Source: a virus (lineage: Duplodnaviria > Caudoviricetes). From it: a stretch of 53,725 bases of DNA. The stretch is from IMG/VR virus record IMGVR_UViG_3300032224_000518, positions 1 through 53,725 of that record; one strand, written 5' to 3'. Under the pieces are notes generated by a model. That model was given only the letters and a program-made list of their open reading frames with translations, searched no databases and was not told the DNA's origin. The translations under genes were made by a program, and so were the position numbers. The first letter of the stretch is position 1, and the number at the start of each line of letters is the position of its first letter. This document shows positions 29,703 through 42,550 of the stretch, piece after piece.

Positions 29703-32700
29703 ATGATCGATTTTAATACCGAACCGTATAATGATGATTACAACGAGGATCAGAAATTTCATAGAATTTTATTTCGTCCTAGTTTTGCTGTTCAAGCACG
29801 TGAGCTGACTCAACTCCAGTCAATTCTGCAAAAGCAGATTGAACGTAATGGAAATCATTTGTTTAAAAATGGTGCCATGGTTGTTCCTGGCCAAATCTCT
29901 CTTGATACTAAAGCAGCATACGTTAAATTAGCATCTACCTATGCTGGTGTTGTTACTGAAACTTTCGTTTCAAATTTAAATGGCGTAACTATCGTTGGTG
30001 CGAGTGGGTTAACTGCAGAAGTTATTAAAGTACAATCTCAAGAAACTTCTGATCCTACAACTTTATACGTTCGTTATAAAGATTCTGGAACTTCTAAAAC
30101 TGTCAAGTCTTTTAGTGCAAATGAAGTTATTACTGCTACAGTTAATGGTATCACTTATACTTTTATAACAGCCGATACAGATCCTTGTGGATATGGATCC
30201 ATAGTCACAATTCAGCGTGGTATCTATTATATTAATGGTTCATATGTTCTATGTGATAATCAACAGTTAATTCTTGAAAAATATAGTAATACTCCATCCT
30301 ATCGTGTTGGTTTAACTGTTGAAGAAACAGTTGTAACACCTGAAGACAATGAAACTCTTTTAGATAATGCTCAGAACTCATACAACTATGCTGCTCCAGG
30401 TGCGCATCGTTACATGATCGATTTAATTTTAGATAAACGTAGTCTTACTTCTACAGATGATCAAAATTTCGTTGAGTTGTTACGCACTGATGAAGGTGTT
30501 AATCTAAAACAAGTTACTAAAACTGAATATAGCGAATTAGAAAAAACTCTGGCTCGTCGTACTTATGACGAAGCTGGTGATTACACTGTCAAAGATTTTG
30601 CAATCGATATTCGTGAACATAGAACTAATGACAGAGGGCAGTGGACAACAAATACTTCATATTTAATTGGTGACGTTGTTACTAATGCTGGTAAAACATA
30701 TACTGCAAAAATTTCAGGTTCTTCTGTTTCTACTGCGCCAACTCATACTTCAGGAACTGCATATGATGGTCCAGGATCTACAGGTATTAACTGGACATAT
30801 ACAACAAACCCAGTATACAATCGTGGTATTTTTAAAAATGGATCTGAGTCTAAATTAGCGATCGGTCTTGAGCCAGGAAAAGCATATGTCCGTGGTTATG
30901 AGATTGAAAAGATTGCCACAGAATACGTAGCGATCGATAAAGCACGTGACTTGGTTCAAGCGGATAATGCTTTTGTTAATACTACTGTTGGTAACTATGT
31001 TTATGTTACTAATATTAATAATCTTCCACCTGTAGCTACCTTTGAAACTATTAGTCTTTATAACCAAGTTACTGGTTCTGCAGGACGTGGTGTTGCAACA
31101 GGAACTAAAATTGGTACTGCTCGAGTTCGTTTTATTGACTGGGATAGTGGAACTTTAGGTGCTACTACTGCAATCTATAAAGTTGGTTTATTTGATGTTA
31201 AAATGAATACTGGATATTTGTTTGATCGTCATGTAAAATCAATATACTATAGCAATGGTTCTACTGCACAAAACTTTACTGCAGATATTAATCCAATTAC
31301 AACTCAGTTAATTGGTTCTGTTACCGCAGCAGGAACTACTGTAACTGGTACAGGAACTTCTTTCCTTACAGATTTAATTGCTGGTGATTATATTCAAGTA
31401 GCTGGTGTGAATTACTTAGTATCATCAATTTCAGCACAAGGTACTTTAGTATTGGGCGCATCCCTTACTGCTACTGGTGCTCCTTATAGTTTAGTTAAAA
31501 CTAAATTACAAGAAACAAATGCAGACAGTTTAATTTTCCAATTACCATATTATGCAGTAGCATCATTAAGAAGCGTTAATGGTACTAATGATACAACATA
31601 TACTGCATATGAAAGATATACAGGAACTGCGTCTTCAGCTTCTGGATCATATTGCACCCTTACAGTATCAACTGCTTCAGGATCTATGGCTTCTGGTGCA
31701 ACCAATGGAAACTATATTTTATGTGATAATACTACAGGATCTATTATTGTCCCAACTAGTATTGCAACTTCAGGATCTTCTGTTACTTTCACATTATCAA
31801 ACACTTACGCTGCAAGACAGTTTGTTGTAATTGGAACAGTAAATAAGACTGGTACTACTAATACTGAAAAAACTAAAACACTAAACAGCGCAACTGTTAC
31901 ATTCACTACTCAAGCTACAGCTGGTGGTCCTTCTCTCTCATTGGGTAAATCTGATGGATGGAAAGTCACAAGCGTATTAATGCAGTCAGGAACTTTTGCT
32001 TCTCCAGGTGGCACTTATAATATTGATATCTCAGATCGTTATGATTTTGATAATGGTCAAAAAGGAACTTATTATGATATCGCTAAATTAGTTTTAAAAG
32101 ATACATATGTTCCACCATCAGCACCTGTTCAAGTAATATTTGAATATTTCACTCACTCAACTGGCGACTACTGTTCTGTTAAATCATATCCAGCTGATGT
32201 TGCATATAGTGACATCCCAGCTGTGCTTAGAGATTCTCTAGACTTCCGTCCACGTATCGATGACACTGGAACTGTATTCAGTGGATCAGGTGCTGCAACA
32301 TTAATTCCAAAACGTGGACAAGATGTAAGAACTGACTTTACATATTACCTTTCACGTAAAGAAAAAATTGCTTTAGATATTAATGGCAATTTCTTCAATA
32401 TCTCAGGAACATCATCTTTAACCCCAGGAGATCCTGCAGATCCTTCTATCGGTTTAGTTCTTTACAGTCTTTCTTTAGAACCATATACATTTGGAACTAC
32501 TGCAAAAAATATAGAAATTAAAAAGTTCGATAATAAACGCTATACAATGCGTGATATCGGTAAACTAGAGAAACGTATCGATAACTTAGAATACTATACT
32601 TCATTATCGCTATTAGAACAGCAAACAGAATCTTTAAAGATTACAGATTCAACTGGTCTTGATAGAATGAAAAATGGATTTATCGTTGACAGTTTTAATG

Positions 32701-35700
32701 GTCATGGCGTTGGTGCTACCAGTTCTGCAGATTATAAGTGCTCTATTGATATGAGTAAAGGCGAACTGCGTCCTTTCTATACAATGAGAAACGTAAATCT
32801 TATTGAGAAAAATTCAAATGATTCACAGCGTTCTGCAGCGCATTATGCTCAATATGGTGATGTAATCACATTACCTATTCAATCGCACATACCTCTAGTT
32901 AAACAAGAGTTTGGTTCACGTTTAGAAAACATTAACCCATTTGCAATTTTTACATTTATTGGCGATGTTAAAATTAATCCATCCTCTGATGATTGGTTTG
33001 AAGTTGATCGTCGTCCAGATATTGTAACAAACGTAGAAGGTAATTTTGTAACTGTTGCTTCTCTTGCTGAAAAAGCTGGTGTGCTTGGTACTGTTTGGAA
33101 CGCATGGCAAACTCAGTGGACTGGTGAACCAGTTAATCAAGGTATAAAACAATTCGTTGGTGATAGACGTGGTATTGGCACTGTTGGTTGGCGAGATGGA
33201 TTAGCAGCAAATATGAACGATGGTCAGCTTGATCAAATGTTTGGTTTTGTGCAAGGTGCTGGCTGGGCGCATCGTGTGGTTACTGCTGAAGTAACTGCTA
33301 CACAAATTGGTCAGTCAAGAAGTGGTGTTAAAACTAACTTAGTGCAAAAGGTTGATAGACAAGTTGTTGCTGATAGAACTATCTCTTCAGCTGTTATACC
33401 ATATATTCGTTCTAGAAATGTTCTAGTTCAAGTTCGTGGTCTAAAACCTGTTACAAGATTTTATCCATTCTTTGACAATATTGATATCTCTGCATATTGC
33501 ACTCCTGCTTCTTTCATCACTTATACTTCAAGTGGAACATTTAACGTAGAGTCAAATGTTGGTGGTTTATCTTCAGAAACTGCAAGAAGAATTTCTGGTG
33601 ACTCACAAGTTTGTTTAAACAAAGGTGACGTAATCACTGGCGCAACGTCAGGTGCAACTGCAGTTGTAGTTGGTAGTCATCTAGATCCTGATACAAATGC
33701 TAAAGTTCTTCATGTTATGAACATTATTGGAACTTTCCAGACTAATGAAACTATTACAGGTTCTATTTCATCAACAGTTGGTGTGGTTCAGGCTGTTACT
33801 GCCAATGCTATAGGATCTACTTTAACTACAAATAAAAACGGAGATATTAATCTTCTGTTTAATATTCCAAATACAGATTCAGTTCGTTTCCGCACAGGAT
33901 CTCGTGAGTTTAAGTTAGTTGACGTTTCTACTGCAACTGGAGACTTTACTTCTCGTGGTCGTGCTACTTACAACGCAACTGGTATTTTAGAAACTAAACA
34001 ATCTTTAGTTAATGCTGTACGTAACGCTGAAATTGTTCAAGAAACTGTTCAAGATTCTCAGACCATTGTTGAAACTTCACAGCGTGTTATTGGCGATACT
34101 GGTTGGTATGATCCGCTGGCTCAAACATTCTTGGTTGATAACAAAGGTGGAGCATTCTTAACTAAAGTTGATATTTTCTTTGCAACTAAAGATACACGTA
34201 TTCCTGTAACTTTAGAGATCCGTGAAGTGGTTAATGGTTATCCAGGAAAACGAGTATTACCTTTCTCTCGTACAACTATAAATCCTGAGCAGGTAACCCT
34301 ATCTTCAAATTTAGTTTCTTTAGATGGTGTAGATATTCCATCATATGATACTCCAACCACATTTACTTTTAAATCTCCTGTATATGTTCAGGATGGTGGC
34401 GAATATTGTATTGTTTTGATTTCAGACTCAAACAAATATAAAGTATGGATTTCACAGTTGGGCGACCAGATCCCAGGATCTTCTCGTACAATTTCTGAAC
34501 AACCTTACAATGGCGTATTGTTTAAATCGCAAAACGCATCTACTTGGACAGCAGATCAGTCTCAAGATTTGAAGTTTACAATATATCGTGCTGATTTTGA
34601 TACATCAACTGTTGGTACTGTTCAGTTTGTTAATGATGTTCTACCATATCAAACATTAGACAAAGATCCATTCCAAGTTACAACTGGTTCTAATTTAGTT
34701 CGTGTATGGCAAAAAGATCATGGATTGACTGTAGGAGCGAGAGTAATTATTACTGGAGCAACAGGAACTCTTAATGGTATTCCTTCAGCTGAACTTAATG
34801 GAACCAAAACTGTAGCTAATATTGACTTAGATTCATATACTATTAACACAACTACAGTTTCAACAGGAACTGGTTATTGTGGTGGTAGCGCAATTAGAGC
34901 TACTTCTCAAGTTCAGTATGATACAATTAATCCAATTTGTCAAGTTCAGAATTTCTCTGAGACAGCGATTGAATATGCAATTAAAACTACATCTGGCCAA
35001 TCAGTTGATGGAAGTCAAACTCCTTACATTACTGATATTGGTTTTGGTGATTGTTTAGCAAATTCAAATAATCCGTTCTTTAGCCCAAGAGTTGTAGCTT
35101 CAGAAGTTAATGAAAACACATTAATGTCTGGAACAAAATCCGTGACTTTTGCGGTTAATATGTCTTCTACAAATTCTTCACTTTCACCAGTGTTAGATAC
35201 TCATCGCATGAGTTTAGTTGCTGTTTCCAACAGACTTAACTATCCAACTCACGCAAACGTAGACGTAACCCCAACGGATTATGTAACTCTGTTTACTGGT
35301 GCAACTGGAGCGTTTAGTTTCTCTGGTTCTACAATCACTTCAACCAATGCTGCTGTAAGAACATTATTGGCAACTATTAACATTGGTCAGTATATTGTTG
35401 TTTCTGGTACTACTACTGCTGGAAATGCAGGACAGTATCTGGTCACCAATAACGTGGATGATGGAACTACAACTACTTTAACTTTAAACGGAATTACGTT
35501 TACCTCTGAAGCTGCAGTCAGCGGAACTACTGTCCAGCTGATTAATCTGTTTAGTGATGAAATCTCTCCAATGGGTTCATCGGCTGCTTCTAAGTATGTA
35601 ACAAACGTAGTTAAATTGGCTCTTCCATCAACCTTCGCTAAGATTCGTTTCTCAGCCAACATACCTTCGGGTGCTGATGTTTCTGTTTATTATAAGACTA

Positions 35701-35924
35701 CTTTGTCTGCCAGCGGAACTATGGATAAGACTAAATATACTTTAGCGAGTCCAATTACTCCAGCTGTAAAAGTGGAAAACGGAAACGAAGCATTCTATGA
35801 TGTTGATTACTCGTTGACCAATTTAAACCCATTTGATGCAATTCAGGTAAAACTGGTTATGAATTCTACAAACAGTTCTGCTGTTCCAAGAATCAAAGAT
35901 TTAAGAATTATTTGCTGCGCATAA
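29703..35924 (+). CDS. Large virion structural protein, DUF4815 (VrlC-like)
   Basis: PYNDDY...ILFRP...QARELTQLQ, RYTMRDIGKLEKRI..LEYYTSLSLLE, DPLAQTF, LFKSQNASTW. Confidence 0.88.
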   Translation: MIDFNTEPYNDDYNEDQKFHRILFRPSFAVQARELTQLQSILQKQIERNGNHLFKNGAMVVPGQISLDTKAAYVKLASTYAGVVTETFVSNLNGVTIVGASGLTAEVIKVQSQETSDPTTLYVRYKDSGTSKTVKSFSANEVITATVNGITYTFITADTDPCGYGSIVTIQRGIYYINGSYVLCDNQQLILEKYSNTPSYRVGLTVEETVVTPEDNETLLDNAQNSYNYAAPGAHRYMIDLILDKRSLTSTDDQNFVELLRTDEGVNLKQVTKTEYSELEKTLARRTYDEAGDYTVKDFAIDIREHRTNDRGQWTTNTSYLIGDVVTNAGKTYTAKISGSSVSTAPTHTSGTAYDGPGSTGINWTYTTNPVYNRGIFKNGSESKLAIGLEPGKAYVRGYEIEKIATEYVAIDKARDLVQADNAFVNTTVGNYVYVTNINNLPPVATFETISLYNQVTGSAGRGVATGTKIGTARVRFIDWDSGTLGATTAIYKVGLFDVKMNTGYLFDRHVKSIYYSNGSTAQNFTADINPITTQLIGSVTAAGTTVTGTGTSFLTDLIAGDYIQVAGVNYLVSSISAQGTLVLGASLTATGAPYSLVKTKLQETNADSLIFQLPYYAVASLRSVNGTNDTTYTAYERYTGTASSASGSYCTLTVSTASGSMASGATNGNYILCDNTTGSIIVPTSIATSGSSVTFTLSNTYAARQFVVIGTVNKTGTTNTEKTKTLNSATVTFTTQATAGGPSLSLGKSDGWKVTSVLMQSGTFASPGGTYNIDISDRYDFDNGQKGTYYDIAKLVLKDTYVPPSAPVQVIFEYFTHSTGDYCSVKSYPADVAYSDIPAVLRDSLDFRPRIDDTGTVFSGSGAATLIPKRGQDVRTDFTYYLSRKEKIALDINGNFFNISGTSSLTPGDPADPSIGLVLYSLSLEPYTFGTTAKNIEIKKFDNKRYTMRDIGKLEKRIDNLEYYTSLSLLEQQTESLKITDSTGLDRMKNGFIVDSFNGHGVGATSSADYKCSIDMSKGELRPFYTMRNVNLIEKNSNDSQRSAAHYAQYGDVITLPIQSHIPLVKQEFGSRLENINPFAIFTFIGDVKINPSSDDWFEVDRRPDIVTNVEGNFVTVASLAEKAGVLGTVWNAWQTQWTGEPVNQGIKQFVGDRRGIGTVGWRDGLAANMNDGQLDQMFGFVQGAGWAHRVVTAEVTATQIGQSRSGVKTNLVQKVDRQVVADRTISSAVIPYIRSRNVLVQVRGLKPVTRFYPFFDNIDISAYCTPASFITYTSSGTFNVESNVGGLSSETARRISGDSQVCLNKGDVITGATSGATAVVVGSHLDPDTNAKVLHVMNIIGTFQTNETITGSISSTVGVVQAVTANAIGSTLTTNKNGDINLLFNIPNTDSVRFRTGSREFKLVDVSTATGDFTSRGRATYNATGILETKQSLVNAVRNAEIVQETVQDSQTIVETSQRVIGDTGWYDPLAQTFLVDNKGGAFLTKVDIFFATKDTRIPVTLEIREVVNGYPGKRVLPFSRTTINPEQVTLSSNLVSLDGVDIPSYDTPTTFTFKSPVYVQDGGEYCIVLISDSNKYKVWISQLGDQIPGSSRTISEQPYNGVLFKSQNASTWTADQSQDLKFTIYRADFDTSTVGTVQFVNDVLPYQTLDKDPFQVTTGSNLVRVWQKDHGLTVGARVIITGATGTLNGIPSAELNGTKTVANIDLDSYTINTTTVSTGTGYCGGSAIRATSQVQYDTINPICQVQNFSETAIEYAIKTTSGQSVDGSQTPYITDIGFGDCLANSNNPFFSPRVVASEVNENTLMSGTKSVTFAVNMSSTNSSLSPVLDTHRMSLVAVSNRLNYPTHANVDVTPTDYVTLFTGATGAFSFSGSTITSTNAAVRTLLATINIGQYIVVSGTTTAGNAGQYLVTNNVDDGTTTTLTLNGITFTSEAAVSGTTVQLINLFSDEISPMGSSAASKYVTNVVKLALPSTFAKIRFSANIPSGADVSVYYKTTLSASGTMDKTKYTLASPITPAVKVENGNEAFYDVDYSLTNLNPFDAIQVKLVMNSTNSSAVPRIKDLRIICCA

Positions 35925-36164: not shown

Positions 36165-37355
36165 ATGGCGACGCTAGTTCTAAGACAATCAAAAGGCTCA
36201 CCTCTCACCAACGCTGAAGTTGATGCAAACTTTACCAACCTCAACGATGACGTTGCGACTAAGTTAGCCTCATCAGCATATACTGCTGCAGACGTCCTAA
36301 CCAAAATCAAAACTGTTGATGGCACTGGAACTGGGCTTGATACTGATTTGGTTCGTGGGTTGGCTTCATCTGCCACTTTACCAACTGGATCTGATAAAAG
36401 TTCTGTTGTAACTCGAGACGCAACTGGTAATACTGCTGCAAATGCGCTTACATTAACTGGAGCTTTGACAGGAACAACTGCTACCTTTTCTGGAGCAGTT
36501 AACGTAGCATCTATTAGTATTTCTGGCGGATCTATTCCAATCGGTGTAGGTGGTACTGGTGCAACTAATGCACCGAACGCAAGAGATAACTTGGGTGTTA
36601 TGATTAATCGTGACGTTCAAGCATGGAGTGCTAAATTAGATGCTTATGCAACTCCTGCAGGAACAACTCCTTATGGAGCCGATACAATCGCATATTGGAC
36701 TTCATCTAGCGAGGTCAGAGTAACATCGTTAACTTCACTTGGCAGAAGTTTAATTGCTAGTTCGACCCCTAATGGAATGCAAACTGTTCTTGGTTTACGT
36801 CTTGGTAATGATGTCCAGCCATTTAGTTCTGAATTATCTGCAGTTGGATCTTTATCTACTACAGGTATGGTTGCTAGAACTGCATCTAATACTTTTGTAC
36901 CTCGTACTATTACTGGGGTGACTGGCGATATTGACGTATCCAATGGTAACGGAGTTTCAGGAAATCCAGCTTTGTCAGTTGGTGCAAACATTCCTCGTCT
37001 TGCAAATAATAATACTTTTGCAGGTAGTTCGAATACTTTCTCGGGAACTGTCTACGCTGCAGGATTCCAAATTTCTTCTGACGCAAGACTAAAAGAGAAT
37101 GTAGAAACGCTAAATAGTGCTGTAGACACTGTTCAGCAATTGCGTGGTGTTTCTTACATTAAAAATGGTAAACCCGAGATCGGTTTGATCGCTCAAGAAG
37201 TTGAGCAAGTAATGCCATTTTTAGTCGGAGAAACCGAAGATGGATATAAATCTGTCGCCTATGCCAACATGGTTGGATTGTTAGTAGAAGCAATAAAAGA
37301 ACAAAATAAAACTATTAAAGAATTAACCACTCGTTTAGAGAAATTGGAGAAATAA
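36165..37355 (+). CDS. Tail fibre/spike with C-terminal peptidase S74 intramolecular chaperone
   Basis: KGSPLTNAEVDANFTNL N-terminus; SDARLKENV, IGLIAQEVE, SVAYANMVGLLVEAIKE. Confidence 0.9.
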   Translation: MATLVLRQSKGSPLTNAEVDANFTNLNDDVATKLASSAYTAADVLTKIKTVDGTGTGLDTDLVRGLASSATLPTGSDKSSVVTRDATGNTAANALTLTGALTGTTATFSGAVNVASISISGGSIPIGVGGTGATNAPNARDNLGVMINRDVQAWSAKLDAYATPAGTTPYGADTIAYWTSSSEVRVTSLTSLGRSLIASSTPNGMQTVLGLRLGNDVQPFSSELSAVGSLSTTGMVARTASNTFVPRTITGVTGDIDVSNGNGVSGNPALSVGANIPRLANNNTFAGSSNTFSGTVYAAGFQISSDARLKENVETLNSAVDTVQQLRGVSYIKNGKPEIGLIAQEVEQVMPFLVGETEDGYKSVAYANMVGLLVEAIKEQNKTIKELTTRLEKLEK

Positions 37356-37356
37356 T

Positions 37357-37725
37357 ATGCCAGTAGCTGCAACAGGATTTAGAAGATCAGATGGTACAGA
37401 CCTTAATGCCCTTTTTTGGACATGGCAAGGTGACTTGGGTCATAACGGTAATTTAGTAACCGACGGAAATGGTAACTGTAATTGGAACTGCGCATGTAAT
37501 GGAGCTAACTGCAACTGCGGTAACTGTGACGCAGCAGATATTTCAATTAACCTATATGTAACAGATTATCGTTTAAATATTTTCCGTAATACCGATCGTC
37601 GGGATGGTATTCGTCACGATACTCAAGAACAATCGATGGGTCAATTCCGTTTCTATCGTACTAATTGTAACTGTAATTGTAATTGCAACTGTAATTGTAA
37701 TTGCGACTGCGCTTGCAACTGTTAA
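37357..37725 (+). CDS. Cys/Asn-repeat protein; candidate radical-SAM modification target
   Basis: 122 aa with 16 Cys in two clusters: NCNWNCACNGANCNCGNC and C-terminal (NC)7-DC-AC-NC. Confidence 0.8.
   Translation: MPVAATGFRRSDGTDLNALFWTWQGDLGHNGNLVTDGNGNCNWNCACNGANCNCGNCDAADISINLYVTDYRLNIFRNTDRRDGIRHDTQEQSMGQFRFYRTNCNCNCNCNCNCNCDCACNC
37663..37722 (+). repeat. Hexamer coding repeat AAY-TGY encoding (Asn-Cys)n
   Basis: aat tgt aac tgt aat tgt aat tgc aac tgt aat tgt aat tgc gac tgc gct tgc aac tgt. Confidence 0.9.
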
Positions 37726-38663
37726 TGGAATATAAAAAAATGTATAAACTATTAAAAACACATATCCAAGCATCAACTGTAACCGAAAAGATTGGTATTA
37801 ATTATAATGTTAGACCAACTATGGGTTTCGATGAAGAAACACAAGAAATTAAAGTTAGAATTGACAAAGTTGCTAAACCTGATTTAACACGTGAAGCAGA
37901 TGTTGAAGTAACATATGAACTTCTTAAAGAAAGAACTTTCACTGTAGCAGATTTTCCTGCTGTTACTGACCACAATAACTGGATCGTAGAGTATGATGTA
38001 GTTAACAATATTATTAGTGATCCTATTTCAATCTGGGAACTTATTAAAGCCAAACGAGCAACAGATCCAACATTCGTTTTTGGCGATTTTAGAGAATATT
38101 TAAATTCTAGATGGAGTGAGGATTTAACCCCACTATTCTCTGTAAAATCATTTGACCCAATTTCAGATTTTAGTCATAGCGTTTTAGCATTTTGGGTAAA
38201 CCAAGATGATGATACTACAACCAAATATGATACTGTTTTAACAAACGATAGTTCTGTTGAATTAATGACAATTGAACAGCGTGATTCATATATTAGTTCA
38301 TTTATTCCTAAAATTTCTTTTGCAGTTAAAACTACCGATGATGTATCAGTTGGTACTGTTACTGCAGTACCTCCAAGTAAAACTGGTGGCACAATTTTTA
38401 ATAACTATACAGTTACATTACCTGCTGCAGATTTATATAAGATTGAAATAACAGTAGCCAAAGAAAAATTTGGGGATACTCCAAACACTTATAATTTAAC
38501 AACAGTCAATGGTAATATCAATAAAAATCGTATACAAATTGGCGACGGAACTTTTGAAATTCTATTAAATTCCTCTGGTTTGGTAGCTACTGATTATGTT
38601 AAACTTAAATTGAATTTGGGTGATTTTACGTCTTTCGCAGAACTTTGGATTACCTTTAATTGA
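37725..38663 (+). CDS. Hypothetical beta-rich protein
   Basis: Long ORF; start either ATG 37725 (TAATG coupling) or 37740; no family recognised. Confidence 0.75.
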   Translation: MEYKKMYKLLKTHIQASTVTEKIGINYNVRPTMGFDEETQEIKVRIDKVAKPDLTREADVEVTYELLKERTFTVADFPAVTDHNNWIVEYDVVNNIISDPISIWELIKAKRATDPTFVFGDFREYLNSRWSEDLTPLFSVKSFDPISDFSHSVLAFWVNQDDDTTTKYDTVLTNDSSVELMTIEQRDSYISSFIPKISFAVKTTDDVSVGTVTAVPPSKTGGTIFNNYTVTLPAADLYKIEITVAKEKFGDTPNTYNLTTVNGNINKNRIQIGDGTFEILLNSSGLVATDYVKLKLNLGDFTSFAELWITFN

Positions 38664-38668
38664 GTGAC

Positions 38669-38675
38669 CTAAATA
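38669..38675 (+). promoter_or_regulatory. Late promoter motif CTAAATA upstream of the radical SAM gene
   Basis: Intergenic, same motif as upstream of structural genes. Confidence 0.6.
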
Positions 38676-38713
38676 TCTTTGAGGGATATTATTAATTATT
38701 AAAAAGGTTGAGA

Positions 38714-40195
38714 ATGAAATATAAATTGACAATGACTGGCTCTAATGATGTAGAGCAAATTTTATTATATGATCCAATGACATCTGAAATTTTGTGGGAA
38801 GAGACTGGTGAAAAACCAGCTCTAACCCATTTAGGTAAAGATGTAGAATATAGCATTGAATCTAAAGTATGGAAACCATTTACCGTTACAGATCCTAGCG
38901 ATCCTGCGCTTCACGGTAGAAAATCCGCAACACCAATGACGTTAAAAATAACCATGGGGTTAAAGTGCAACTACAAGTGCACTTACTGCAATCAAGCACA
39001 TCAGCCACACGATTCAGTTGGTGGTCCTCAGGATGCGGAAGAACTGGTTCAAAAGATTAAAAATAATTTTAATATTGGAACTTTTGATAAACCAAGAATT
39101 GAATTTTGGGGTGGCGAGCCATTAGTATATTGGAAAACTATTGTACCTCTAACTGAAAAGGTTAGAAAACTATACCCTAATGCTCAATTTATGATGGTTA
39201 CCAATGGATCGTTATTGGACAGAGATAAAATTAACTGGTTCAATAAAATGGGATTTTCTATTGGTATGTCACACGATGGTCCGCTTCATGCGCAGAATCG
39301 TGGACCAGATCCTTTAGATGAATATCAAGCACGTGATGCTGTATGTTATGCTCTTAAAACTATGGGGCAAATGCGTTTCTCATTTAACTGCGTATTAACA
39401 CGTGAAAACGTATCCTTAAAAGCAGTCAGAGATTTCATTGTAAATAAATTAAATATTGATGACACAAGAACTCCAGATAAACCAGGTATTAGTGAAAGAG
39501 AAGTTCAAGTAACTACTGAAGAATTATTACTACCATATGACGAAGATGGTATGAAACATTCTTTACAAACTACTGATGAAAAGAAAGAAGTCTTGCACAG
39601 CTTATTCTGGGAGACTACTGGCAACGAAAATGAATTTAGTTGGACAATTCATCAGAAAATTAAAAACTTTTTTGATGGAATTATCTATCAGCGTCCTGCA
39701 GAAGTCTTAGGACAGAAGTGTGGAATGGATAGACCAGATAACATTGCTATTGATATGAAAGGTAATGTTACTACTTGTCAGAATACTTCATCATTAACTA
39801 AACACAATATTGGAACTATTGAGAAACTCGATGAAGTTAGGTTAGATACTTCACATCACTGGAGCACTCGTGCAGAATGCCCTTCTTGCCCAGTTGTTCA
39901 ACTATGTCAAGGTGCTTGTTTATTTCTTGAAGATGAATATTGGACACAAGCGTGTGAGAACTTATTCTACTACAATATGGCTATGCTAGCTTCTTCATTA
40001 TATTTTTTAACTGGTGGGTTAGTGTTGACTAAACTGGAAGGTGAGAAAATTCGTTTCGATGGAACTACTTCTATGGATGTTATTGATATAAATTTTGTTA
40101 AATCAAATGGCAAACAAAAGTCTTGGAAAGTTCGTAAACCGATCGGAATCCCAGTGGTTTCTGTTCCAAAAGCTGAAGAATATGCAGTTCAATGA
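38714..40195 (+). CDS. Radical SAM / SPASM-domain protein (peptide/protein maturase type)
   Basis: CNYKCTYC, WGGEP, VTNG, SHDG; SPASM cysteines CGMD...GNVTTC...CPSCPVVQLCQGAC...C. Confidence 0.93.
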   Translation: MKYKLTMTGSNDVEQILLYDPMTSEILWEETGEKPALTHLGKDVEYSIESKVWKPFTVTDPSDPALHGRKSATPMTLKITMGLKCNYKCTYCNQAHQPHDSVGGPQDAEELVQKIKNNFNIGTFDKPRIEFWGGEPLVYWKTIVPLTEKVRKLYPNAQFMMVTNGSLLDRDKINWFNKMGFSIGMSHDGPLHAQNRGPDPLDEYQARDAVCYALKTMGQMRFSFNCVLTRENVSLKAVRDFIVNKLNIDDTRTPDKPGISEREVQVTTEELLLPYDEDGMKHSLQTTDEKKEVLHSLFWETTGNENEFSWTIHQKIKNFFDGIIYQRPAEVLGQKCGMDRPDNIAIDMKGNVTTCQNTSSLTKHNIGTIEKLDEVRLDTSHHWSTRAECPSCPVVQLCQGACLFLEDEYWTQACENLFYYNMAMLASSLYFLTGGLVLTKLEGEKIRFDGTTSMDVIDINFVKSNGKQKSWKVRKPIGIPVVSVPKAEEYAVQ

Positions 40196-40515
40196 GTTTT
40201 TTAGATTGTAATATTTGGGAGATTAATCAGTTTCCCAAATATGGAACTGCTTTAAATAGATACACGTTAGCAACTATATTTGAGTATAGTTCAGATACAG
40301 TTGATTATCAGAGTAATAATTTTAAACTACAAATACCTGAGTTTTGCATAAAAATTTCAGAATCTGATAAAAAATTTGTACTGAAAAATAAAGAATATCT
40401 GATTAAACATAAAATACCATTCTTGGTTTTGCTAAATAGTAATGATCAAGAAAACTGGGTAGCAGATTTATCCATGTCTGACTACTTAATTAGAAGAATA
40501 CAACAGGAGAAATAA
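40192..40515 (+). CDS. Hypothetical protein
   Basis: 107-aa ORF with ATGA overlap to the radical SAM gene; contains CTAAATA at 40432. Confidence 0.6.
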   Translation: MSFLDCNIWEINQFPKYGTALNRYTLATIFEYSSDTVDYQSNNFKLQIPEFCIKISESDKKFVLKNKEYLIKHKIPFLVLLNSNDQENWVADLSMSDYLIRRIQQEK

Positions 40516-41463
40516 ATGGAAAAGAAGCATGTAAAATGGGTTATCGCCCACGAGCCAATCGGTCTATTTTTGAAAGTAGCTGAGTCTTTCTCTAAAGAAG
40601 TTAATGAGCAGACTGGTGGAAAATTTAATATTGAAGTTCTTTCTTTGTCTGACTATTCTGCAAAATATAACGCTGGCAAAAAGATTACCAAGAATGAACT
40701 AATGAAATTGGTTAATACTGGCGCAATCGAAATGAGTCATATCTACACTACTTGGTTAGCTGACTACAATAAAGATCTACATGCATTAGATCTTCCATTC
40801 TTGTTTAAAGACCACGATCACGCTGATCGTGTTTTAGAAGGTTCTATTGGAACTGAATTGTTGGCTGGTGTATCTAAGCAGTCAAACATTAAGGCTATGT
40901 CGTTCACTTACTCTGGTGGCTATCGTGTAGTTCCAGCTAACTTCCGTGCTGATACTGTTGCAGCTTGGGAAGGACAAACTGTTCGTACTAGCCGTAGCCC
41001 AGTTGCTGTTGAAACTTTCAAAGCACTTGGCGCAATCCCAAATAAAGATATCGCTCTTGAAGAAATGAACGAAGCAGCTGATGCTGGTGTTATCTCTGCT
41101 GGTGAATCTACATACGTACGTATTTTCCCACTACAGCAAAATGAATCTTTCAAAGTTGTTAACGACACTGCTCATAGCTTGTTCTTGACTTCTATTATTG
41201 TTAACCAAGATTTTATGAAGCAGTTTGATGCTGAAACTCAAGAGATCATGGCTACTGCAGCATTTAACGCTGCTCGTAAAGAGCGTCGTGAGTCTGTTGC
41301 TGACATTCCAAATATCTTGGCTGAGTGTGTAGAAAAAGGTGTTGCAGTTGTTCGTATGACTGATGAAGAACAATCTAAATTTAAAGCTGTTACTTCTTCT
41401 GTATATGAGAAGTTTGCTGACTATTTTACCCCAGGATTGGTTCAGAAGATTCAGTTACACTAA
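40516..41463 (+). CDS. TRAP-type DctP-like solute-binding protein lacking a signal peptide
   Basis: VNEQTGGKFNIEV, GAIEM, LDLPFLFKDHDHA, GGYR, GQTVRT, DTAH; no N-terminal hydrophobic segment. Confidence 0.82.
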   Translation: MEKKHVKWVIAHEPIGLFLKVAESFSKEVNEQTGGKFNIEVLSLSDYSAKYNAGKKITKNELMKLVNTGAIEMSHIYTTWLADYNKDLHALDLPFLFKDHDHADRVLEGSIGTELLAGVSKQSNIKAMSFTYSGGYRVVPANFRADTVAAWEGQTVRTSRSPVAVETFKALGAIPNKDIALEEMNEAADAGVISAGESTYVRIFPLQQNESFKVVNDTAHSLFLTSIIVNQDFMKQFDAETQEIMATAAFNAARKERRESVADIPNILAECVEKGVAVVRMTDEEQSKFKAVTSSVYEKFADYFTPGLVQKIQLH

Positions 41464-41476
41464 TTAACTTTGGTGA

Positions 41477-41504
41477 CTAAATAATAGGGAGCTTCGGCTC
41501 CCTA
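41477..41504 (+). promoter_or_regulatory. Late promoter motif followed by a cUUCGg hairpin
   Basis: CTAAATA 41477-41483; TAGGGAGC-TTCG-GCTCCCTA 41485-41504. Confidence 0.65.
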
Positions 41505-41521: not shown

Positions 41522-42550
41522 ATGCAAGTAATTTATTATAACGTATTTTCTGTTCCATTGTGTATAGAAAAGAACCCTTCTTATCTAAGTCAATACTACT
41601 CTAAAGATTTTTCTCAAGATCTGTTTTTGAAGTATAGAAAATATGGAATAGACACTTCTAATTTTGTTTATGATAGAACGCAGTCGATACCACACTACCT
41701 TGATATAAAACCAGACTTAGCACCAATACCCAACGCAGAAGGATTTAATAAATCTTTTGAGCAGGTGGTTGAAGAACGAGCTAAAGAATTACTATCTTTA
41801 GGTAAACAAATCAATGTTGTTTGGAGTGGCGGAATTGATAGTACGTTAGCACTGTTTGCATTAATTAAATATGCAAACGATCCTAGTCAGATTACTGTAT
41901 ATGGAACATATACATCAATCTTAGAGTCAGGAAATCTTTTTGAGAATAATATTCTACCCAAAGGTGTTAAACATAACATAAAAGTTTCCAGTAAAAAAGA
42001 ATTCTCAAACCCAGATGAAATTTATGTAACAGGGTTTATGGGAAACCAGTTGTTCGGTCCTACGGACGACTTCTCTAAAAATTCTACCATAACTTTGTTT
42101 CACCATCAGTTTAATTATGATGATCCTTTGGCGCCATATCAGAAATGTATTTCAGGCGAGAAGTTAGAATTTTTACAACCAATGATTGATGCTTCTCCCA
42201 AAAAGATAGAAACAGTAAGGGATTTACGTTGGTGGTTTATTTTTAATTTGGACTGGTATACAGCTAAATTTGATTCTCTGGTTCATGCTAAAAATAGAAA
42301 TGACATATACCATTTCTTTAATACTGATGATTTTCAAAGATATGTTCTTACAACAAAAGAACCATTTACCAAAGAGGTTGGTAACGCATTAACCCATCGT
42401 TGGGAAATGAGACAACTAATCGAAGATTACAGTGGGAATAAACATTACCCTTGGAATAAAACAAAAGGGGTTTCGAATCTTAGTAACTCGAACCCCTCTT
42501 GGCTGATAATGCTTGAAGATTACAGTTTAATAGTTAGTAAACCCAACTAA
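41522..42550 (+). CDS. PP-loop (adenine nucleotide alpha-hydrolase-like) ATP pyrophosphatase, asparagine-synthetase-like domain
   Basis: VVWSGGIDST PP-loop, VTGFMGNQLFG, FFNTDDF; no glutaminase domain. Confidence 0.75.
   Translation: MQVIYYNVFSVPLCIEKNPSYLSQYYSKDFSQDLFLKYRKYGIDTSNFVYDRTQSIPHYLDIKPDLAPIPNAEGFNKSFEQVVEERAKELLSLGKQINVVWSGGIDSTLALFALIKYANDPSQITVYGTYTSILESGNLFENNILPKGVKHNIKVSSKKEFSNPDEIYVTGFMGNQLFGPTDDFSKNSTITLFHHQFNYDDPLAPYQKCISGEKLEFLQPMIDASPKKIETVRDLRWWFIFNLDWYTAKFDSLVHAKNRNDIYHFFNTDDFQRYVLTTKEPFTKEVGNALTHRWEMRQLIEDYSGNKHYPWNKTKGVSNLSNSNPSWLIMLEDYSLIVSKPN

Follow-up and report, generated by a model that had tools for sequence, protein, structure and literature searches.

Radical S-adenosylmethionine (SAM) enzymes of the SPASM type are known as maturases of peptide natural products and of a few protein substrates, QhpC and CrpA among them. 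NxxcB introduces a Cys–Asn beta-thioether into NxxcA, a streptococcal peptide that is made on ribosomes and then modified after translation (RiPP), and, according to the accessible part of the report, tolerates N, A, D and Q as acceptors (PMC9389541). In Methanococcus voltae, the SPASM enzyme CrpC modifies a folded protein, CrpA, by introducing thioethers into its Cys-rich C-terminal part (Dieter et al., 2026, PMC13692751). The sections of that paper available to us describe a 3+4 Cys pattern of auxiliary-cluster ligands in CrpC, a third small protein of the cluster that improves processing, and QhpD, a radical SAM/SPASM enzyme that makes Cys–Asp and Cys–Glu thioethers in the protein subunit QhpC; neither 'phage' nor 'Asn' occurs in the paper. 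Here we analyse a gene block in a T4-like myovirus fragment with an estimated completeness of 33%, which fills an entire IMG/VR record (IMGVR_UViG_3300032224_000518; the whole 53.7-kb stretch is called the window below). A small protein ending in a run of Asn–Cys pairs (the NC protein and its ladder), a conserved partner protein (c2) and a radical SAM/SPASM enzyme are encoded there one after the other, behind a tail fibre gene. The pairing of NC protein and enzyme had been noticed before and interpreted as a maturation system (the original prediction); to this our analysis adds the conserved third gene, c2, and the identification of the NC protein as a detached fibre-tip domain. On balance, it seems to us slightly more likely than not that the three genes form a module that matures the tip of a tail fibre, with the ladder as the substrate on which the enzyme installs serial thioethers.

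The module is real, widespread and uncharacterised: for a known enzyme class, both the setting and the kind of substrate are new. A full-text literature search, with supplements outside its scope, found no paper in which an Asn–Cys ladder, or the action of a radical SAM enzyme on a phage fibre, is described. A survey of pelagimyophages notes radical SAM cassettes in a host-recognition cluster, in its accessible text without analysis (PMC7029224), and the available portions of three further papers (PMC12801897, PMC2938197, PMC9959647) were unrelated to the system.

The association between ladder and enzyme was assessed in both directions. Starting from the enzyme, we examined 160 loci encoding relatives 34–74% identical to it, drawn from viral contigs, bacterial genomes and two annotated phages. 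A ladder was defined as at least four xC pairs, at least two of them NC, and enzyme loci were counted only where at least 4 kb of upstream sequence was present (n = 108). An upstream ladder open reading frame (ORF) on the same strand was found in 100 of these 108 loci, with a median gap of 1556 nt between the end of the ladder ORF and the start of the enzyme. Elsewhere in the 160 loci the pattern did not occur on the plus strand and occurred seven times on the minus strand; by these counts, the ladder exceeds what chance would give. Four of the eight ladder-less loci (L001, L067, L139, L149) have shorter Cys tails right before c2.

Starting from the ladder, an unbiased scan of viral contigs for the DNA pattern of NCNCNCNC gave at least 121 loci, 80 of them with flanks; a locus entered the count only if the sequence downstream of its ladder extended for at least 3.5 kb. 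Among the matches listed, the enzyme was encoded in 29 of 30 loci in which the ladder ended no more than 10 residues from the C-terminus of an ORF of at least 90 aa (the miss is L257), in 4 of 28 in which the pattern fell in a frame of fewer than 90 codons, and in none of four with an internal match. The co-occurrence expected by the original prediction was thus found from either end. An enzyme relative is encoded in at least 585 of the 601 pattern-matched viral-contig stretches listed and in 146 of 171 such stretches of bacterial genomes; prophage copies in Ralstonia and Bradyrhizobium are among the best 120 of 2077 protein matches.

The four short-frame loci with an enzyme (L192, L200, L243, L259) encode proteins of 67–82 aa with an xC ladder at the C-terminus after a conserved His-rich motif, and a distant enzyme relative (27–31% identical) lies 4.6–7.1 kb downstream; these proteins may be a second, smaller type of substrate. 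In L214, L255, L282 and L299, proteins of 118–134 codons (as read) have a Cys–Gln type ladder together with a short NC ladder; in the two of these loci with more sequence, L214 and L255, a 23–25% identical radical SAM gene lies ~1.8 kb upstream.

Most relatives have the ladder at the end of a true tail fibre, as its C-terminal tail, in carriers of 184–726 aa, and no more than eight residues follow it in 108 of 120 ladders. One carrier combines a T7 tail-fibre N-terminal domain with collagen repeats and a phage tail repeat. Among 43 carriers scanned, collagen repeats were detected in six, the T7 N-terminal domain in three, and CBM_5_12 and Hom_end_hint in four each; gp028 of phage JWF, in which the enzyme is gp030, and ORF048 of phage RSP15 are annotated as fibre proteins. 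The carriers range from T7-type fibres with collagen repeats to those of siphovirus JWF, of phage RSP15 and of T4-like phages such as that of the window. Since they are fibres of different phage types, the module appears, from these sequences, to move as a unit between fibre types, and in every phage type seen it lies within the tail-fibre gene block. In seven fibres (Table 1), the ladder runs straight into a Hint (intein-like self-cleaving) domain, and its last Cys is at once the first Cys of that domain; if the domain cleaved itself off, the protein would again end in the ladder.

The NC protein of the window can be related to these fibres. When its profile (A2) was compared by hhalign with a profile of full-length fibres (A4, whose members have Phage_T7_tail, Collagen and PTR domains), residues 4–41 aligned to the start of the fibre C-terminal domain with a probability of 97% (E = 4.6e-11). 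The confident match covers the start of the domain, and the remainder is Cys/Asn-rich. The NC protein is thus a fibre-tip domain split off as a separate gene. The fibre encoded directly upstream of it has no Cys ladder of its own, and in ORF clustering it falls in the same cluster (c1) as the ladder-bearing fibres of other loci. The preference of the original prediction for a fibre tip over a secreted RiPP gains from both observations, that ladders sit on fibre C-termini and that the NC protein aligns to the tip domain.

The sequence of the NC protein bears out what had been described for it: 16 Cys residues in two clusters, a terminal (NC)7-DC-AC-NC and a Cys-free N-terminus, although the last is 40 residues long and not ~39. 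Nineteen homologues, 53–75% identical to the protein of the window, retain both clusters. In the alignment of these 19 close relatives, C41, C45, C47, C52 and C57 are invariant (19/19), as are the first three NC pairs of the ladder, and the number of pairs ranges from 7 to 11. Both codons for Asn (AAT, AAC) and both for Cys (TGT, TGC) are in use, varying along the ladder and among nine relatives while the residues stay constant; it is therefore the protein and not a DNA repeat that is conserved, as originally proposed, and the gene is real and under selection. Across 105 distinct tails, the non-Cys positions of the ladder are occupied by N (68.4%), A (16.6%), D (10.3%) and Q (1.2%). The NC protein has no match in Pfam, NCBIfam or PHROG; tblastn against phages gave none either, which says little with the low-complexity filter on. 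On its own it folds without confidence (ESMFold pLDDT <50 in a complex run; Atlas model pLDDT 0.37), and the protein Atlas gave nothing usable for it or for c2. Prediction of its complex with the enzyme scored 0.00 (mark 0.32), the fold of the NC partner being itself uncertain.

Table 1. The fibre–ladder–enzyme block and associated features. Positions are those of the window unless a locus is named.
Feature	Position	Strand	Basis
Tail fibre gene, 396 aa	36165..37355	+	Pfam PF13884 (Peptidase_S74) 2.2e-13 at C-terminus; PHROG tail-fibre families down to 8e-28
NC protein, 122 aa, presumed substrate	37357..37725	+	ORF; 19-sequence alignment; hhalign to fibre C-terminal domain
First Cys cluster of NC protein, residues 41-57, 6 Cys	37477..37527	+	Sequence
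C-terminal ladder (NC)7-DC-AC-NC, residues 103-122, 10 Cys	37663..37722	+	Sequence
c2, conserved partner, 312 aa from ATG 37725	37725..38663	+	89/108 loci; no known family
Radical SAM/SPASM enzyme, 495 aa as listed	38708..40195	+	PF04055, TIGR04085 above cut-offs; phrog_1802
Enzyme N-terminal extension, residues 1-75	38708..38932	+	Y21, P23, S26 invariant
CX3CX2C radical SAM cluster motif, C87, C91, C94 (CNYKCTYC)	38966..38989	+	20/20 conserved
SPASM region, seven invariant Cys, C338 to C416	39719..39955	+	Each Cys 20/20
107-aa ORF, start overlapping enzyme stop	40192..40515	+	Cluster c34, 11 loci, all close relatives
Ladders followed by a Hint domain	L002 3706-5154 (Achromobacter phage JWF gp028), L047, L054, L066, L159, L163, L169		

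The enzyme gene is the second gene 3' of the ladder gene. It is listed from a TTG at 38708; because a 96%-identical homologue has 493 aa and relatives align from residue 3–5, the real start is probably the ATG at 38714, two codons later, which would also give 493 aa. The protein scores 39.9 bits against PF04055 (cut-off 29.5) and so belongs to the radical SAM superfamily, and 35.3 bits against the SPASM model TIGR04085 (cut-off 27). The GGEP motif is invariant in 20/20 aligned relatives. SPASM domains are recognised by a C-terminal CX9-15GX4C ... CX2CX5CX3C ... C arrangement that binds two auxiliary 4Fe-4S clusters; in the enzyme this reads C338-X13-G-X4-C357, C391-X2-C394-X5-C400-X3-C404 and C416, with every Cys conserved throughout the alignment and a possible eighth ligand, C228, conserved in only 17/20. 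An intact radical SAM enzyme with a full SPASM Cys set, as the original prediction had it, is thus encoded two genes downstream of the fibre tip.

The assignment of the enzyme to a family is less specific. Residues 64–419 match positions 31–391 of the 556-position profile phrog_1802, a family of phage radical SAM domain proteins with no assigned function, at 6.1e-62. The best score from a family-specific model is that of the PapB-family maturases (NF047865, 65.5 bits, cut-off 340), followed by the anaerobic sulfatase maturase anSME (TIGR03942, 63.2 bits, cut-off 349.45); the models for QhpD (TIGR03906, 52.5 bits, cut-off 453), the CrpC family (TIGR04463, 49.8 bits, cut-off 525) and the SCIFF maturase (TIGR03974, 37.5 bits, cut-off 425) score lower still; no NxxcB model is among the best 25 of 52 NCBIfam matches. 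In the Protein Data Bank (PDB), the sequences nearest to the profile of the enzyme family are TigE (8vpo), CteB and anSME (anSME at E = 3.3e-11). An AlphaFold2 (AF2) model of the enzyme (pLDDT 85.8) matched CteB (5why) at 7e-13 and anSME at 5.3e-12 in Foldseek, followed by TigE, ChlB, SuiB and SkfB. The enzyme is therefore of the peptide- or protein-modifying kind of SPASM enzyme, in a family of its own (phrog_1802), and does not group with enzymes acting on cofactors or nucleotides, as the grouping check attached to the original prediction had required of a maturase. No longer, fused form of the enzyme (868–2475 aa) was found at E ≤ 1e-20, which is weak evidence.

The N-terminal extension that had been proposed as a RiPP recognition element (RRE) exists, at ~75 residues including ILLYDPMTSEI; its reading as an RRE found no support. 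No Pfam family, PqqD/RRE included, matches residues 1–75 at E ≤ 10, and the AF2 model of this part has three beta-strands and ordered coil but no helices. For these reasons, and as far as the model goes, the extension cannot be called a canonical RRE.

The c2 family, of ~280 aa, is found upstream of the enzyme in 89 of the 108 loci; of the 100 with a ladder ORF, 76 have c2 immediately behind it. Mean column identity among 49 sequences is 17%, with a single invariant residue, a Gly; given this divergence, c2 is unlikely to be an enzyme. It has no match in Pfam, NCBIfam or PHROGs. In the AF2 model (pLDDT 78.3), the N-terminal part is alpha/beta and the C-terminal domain an Ig-like sandwich, for which Foldseek against the PDB and a VIA wide search returned generic Ig-like or PapD-like sandwiches only (Z ≤ 8.2), with the N-terminal domain barely covered. 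Matches in BFVD are all uncharacterised phage proteins, and structure comparison revealed no PqqD-like winged-helix fold. Genes for fibre assembly proteins and adhesins, such as T4 gp38 and Tfa of Mu and P2, usually lie directly downstream of fibre genes. c2 resembles these proteins in following a fibre-tip gene, in lacking catalytic residues, in diverging fast and in having an Ig-like domain; it differs in that no sequence or fold similarity to them was found, so that the likeness is one of position. By this analogy, c2 is more likely to be a tip-binding assembly or adaptor protein.

In 58 of the 108 loci, genes for 2-oxoglutarate (2OG)-Fe(II) oxygenases or for c20 (clusters c3, c16 and c20) lie between c2 and the enzyme. 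The cassette of the window contains no c3, c16 or c20 gene, which suggests that the oxygenases are accessory. The window has elsewhere a 212-aa oxygenase-like gene on the minus strand, which was considered as part of the module and discarded, since BLAST found no relation to c3, c16 or c20. In two loci of the sister clade of the window enzyme (L034, 4371-5878, and L079), two tandem genes resembling fatty-acid desaturases of the membrane di-iron type (Pfam 1.7e-15) lie, with the 280-aa gene c20, between c2 and the radical SAM gene.

We propose the following sequence of events for the module. The thiolate of a ladder Cys would bind at an open site of the first auxiliary cluster of the enzyme; a hydrogen atom would be abstracted from a neighbouring small residue, Asn or sometimes Ala or Asp; and a C–S thioether would form. 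Repetition along the ladder would yield a serially stapled, rigid tip, and c2, to judge from its position, might keep the tip in place for the enzyme or attach to it once it is finished. The parts of this scheme differ in strength. That the enzyme acts on the ladder is very likely, and that the product sits on the virion is likely, if a little less so. For thioethers as the chemistry, we would put the prospects at even or a little below. They are favoured because the nearest enzymes act on Cys in peptides, because the SPASM pattern of seven Cys agrees with the 3+4 ligands of CrpC, because NCNC units are overlapping NxxC motifs, and because the N, A, D and Q of the ladder are the acceptors tolerated by NxxcB.

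Several observations weigh against the scheme. All family-specific maturase models score far below their cut-offs, so the type of reaction cannot be read from family membership, and anSME, which converts Cys to formylglycine, is nearly as close to the enzyme as CteB in both sequence and fold. Neither Pfam at E ≤ 10 nor the AF2 model revealed a recognisable RRE in the enzyme. The presence of Ala at ~17% of ladder positions indicates that Asn is not a strictly required acceptor. The occurrence of oxygenases that need O2 alongside an enzyme of an O2-sensitive class, in 58/108 loci, means that the product may go beyond thioethers. Finally, the other four ladder-less loci (L062, L121, L127, L144) have neither a Cys tail nor a phage context. 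In two of these, the bacterial contigs L121 and L144, enzyme relatives 38–40% identical adjoin an ABC-transporter-like gene of ~720–733 aa, and neither a fibre nor a ladder ORF is present; the two loci may represent RiPP clusters of the conventional sort that are akin to the phage family.

In a first alternative, the same enzyme would modify the same substrate by another chemistry, whether formylglycine formation as by anSME, epimerisation, or C–C or C–O links, with oxygenases of relatives perhaps elaborating the product. We regard this as unlikely. The near tie of anSME with PapB in family score, its matches in the PDB and in Foldseek, the c3, c16 or c20 genes of more than half the loci and the two desaturase-like genes in the L034 and L079 cassettes all fit it; nevertheless, the enzyme has seven and not eight invariant SPASM Cys residues. 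In anSME, the auxiliary clusters are fully ligated by Cys, whereas thioether-forming enzymes leave a site for the thiolate of the substrate. The target motif in sulfatases is C-x-P/A-x-R, and this motif, searched for as C/S-x-P/A-x-R, is absent from the NC protein, ladder included. The cassette of the window, moreover, has no oxygenase.

The ladder might instead be a structural motif of a trimeric fibre tip, binding metal or Fe-S or forming disulfides, the enzyme acting on c2, on another residue of the fibre or on a small molecule. The tip of the T4 long fibre has His-x-His iron sites pointing to the fibre axis; alternate Cys residues of the ladder would point there in the same way and would share one face of a beta-strand. 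The poor folding of the NC protein alone would also fit a need for partners or metals. Such a structural ladder fits poorly, however, with the very tight two-way co-occurrence of ladder and enzyme; c2 has no conserved residue to serve as target or catalyst, and the nearest relatives of the enzyme all act on Cys-containing peptides or proteins. We therefore consider this explanation quite improbable.

An ordinary RiPP, in which the Cys-rich C-terminus would be cut off and secreted, for example as an antimicrobial peptide during infection, is very improbable: a modified C-terminal region does mirror leader–core precursors, as the accessible part of one paper describes them (PMC13692751), and the two bacterial loci L121 and L144 have their transporter-like neighbour, but no protease or exporter was found in the gene block of the window, as originally noted, most loci have the ladder joined to a genuine fibre body, the module lies inside the tail-fibre block wherever it was seen in phages, and in place of a short precursor there is a domain of 122 aa or a fibre of 184–726 aa.

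Other window genes include those for baseplate wedge and hub proteins, tail tube, a gp32-type single-stranded DNA-binding protein, a helicase loader and PhoH. The fibre, NC, c2 and enzyme genes are four tightly packed genes on the plus strand, preceded by genes for a giant structural protein of 2073 aa and for a virion protein of 78 aa. The fibre gene ends with TAA at 37353-37355; after a single base follows the ATG of the NC gene at 37357, with GGAG 7 nt 5' of it. The stop codon of the NC gene overlaps the ATG of c2 (TAATG, 37723-37727), and that of the enzyme overlaps the start of the next ORF. The Peptidase_S74 domain at the C-terminus of the fibre is an intramolecular chaperone. In megablast, the gene block had no match in the phage collection.

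The giant structural protein (phrog_358, 29703-35924) has a 1644-aa homologue in Ralstonia phage RSP15 (L001, 7316-12250), which is encoded directly after a radical SAM gene. The linkage of giant protein and cassette therefore spans distant phages.

Downstream, the 107-aa ORF has no family match in Pfam or PHROG, and its membership of the module is doubtful because it is kept only in the closest clade. This ORF, the gene that follows it and a 342-aa ORF further on are common to the closest relatives only. The gene that follows encodes a DctP-type solute-binding protein of a TRAP transporter (40516-41463, Pfam 1.3e-43), lies directly 3' of the cassette in the 11 closest relatives and is likely to be an auxiliary metabolic gene. 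For the 342-aa ORF (41522-42550), family searches gave no support to an assignment as a PP-loop enzyme. A strong terminator-like hairpin (41485-41504; eight pairs, GC-rich, then a T-run) directly follows the DctP gene. It is the first such site 3' of the fibre block, so the structural genes and the cassette may share a transcript. The core of the T4 late promoter, TATAAATA, does not occur in the whole window, against 7.1 occurrences expected from shuffled sequences; presumably the phage uses a late motif other than that of T4. A scan of the window for sigma-70 promoters gave results at chance level.

The enzyme family is large and, it appears, devoted to that end of phage tail fibres which binds the receptor. 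If the ladder is cross-linked enzymatically, many phages from freshwater, soil and the sea have on their fibre tips a covalent modification that is invisible to host-range prediction from sequence, anyone expressing such fibres heterologously or engineering them would have to supply the enzyme and c2 as well, and chemistry of the RiPP type would have a structural role in virions. In its full extent, the proposal is that, at the very tip of their host-recognition fibres, phages build a poly-thioether ladder by radical SAM chemistry, covalently stapled and possibly cross-linked between chains, and that tip domain, c2 and enzyme are a mobile module grafted onto podovirus, siphovirus, myovirus and prophage fibres, often with oxygenases that decorate the ladder. 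We advance this tentatively, its chances being a shade short of even. If true, it would be the first enzyme-installed radical cross-link in a structural protein of a virion, and fibre stability or receptor binding would have a new determinant.

Set beside the described systems, the module has partial counterparts in several. anSME is almost as close to the enzyme as CteB in sequence and fold and acts on Cys within proteins, but the phage enzyme has seven SPASM Cys residues instead of eight, and the sulfatase motif is missing from its presumed substrate. QhpD, whose TIGR03906 model the enzyme matches only below the cut-off, differs in maturing a subunit of quinohaemoprotein amine dehydrogenase and not a virion protein. 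The ranthipeptide maturases CteB (substrate SCIFF) and PapB (substrate PapA) provide the best fold match and the best family score, respectively, and share the seven-Cys SPASM; they differ in that the phage enzyme falls far below their cut-offs, in that no RRE was detected in it, and in having small peptides as substrates.

The likeness to NxxcB and NxxcA rests on the substrate motif only: NCNC contains the NxxC motif, and the N, A, D and Q of the ladder correspond to the set of acceptors given in the available text on NxxcB (PMC9389541). The mechanism proposed for NxxcB, like ours, holds the Cys thiolate at an auxiliary cluster. NxxcA, however, is a short secreted peptide with a leader and one cross-link, whereas the phage enzyme would act on a folded fibre-tip domain bearing 3 to 11 pairs. 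The CrpC/CrpA system is archaeal, its motifs are not Asn–Cys, an RRE is predicted there, and its family model (TIGR04463) gives the phage enzyme 49.8 bits against the required 525. Nevertheless, in the sections of the paper accessible to us, CrpC has the same 3+4 Cys ligands at a spacing similar to that in the phage enzyme, and the third small protein of its system may parallel c2 (PMC13692751).

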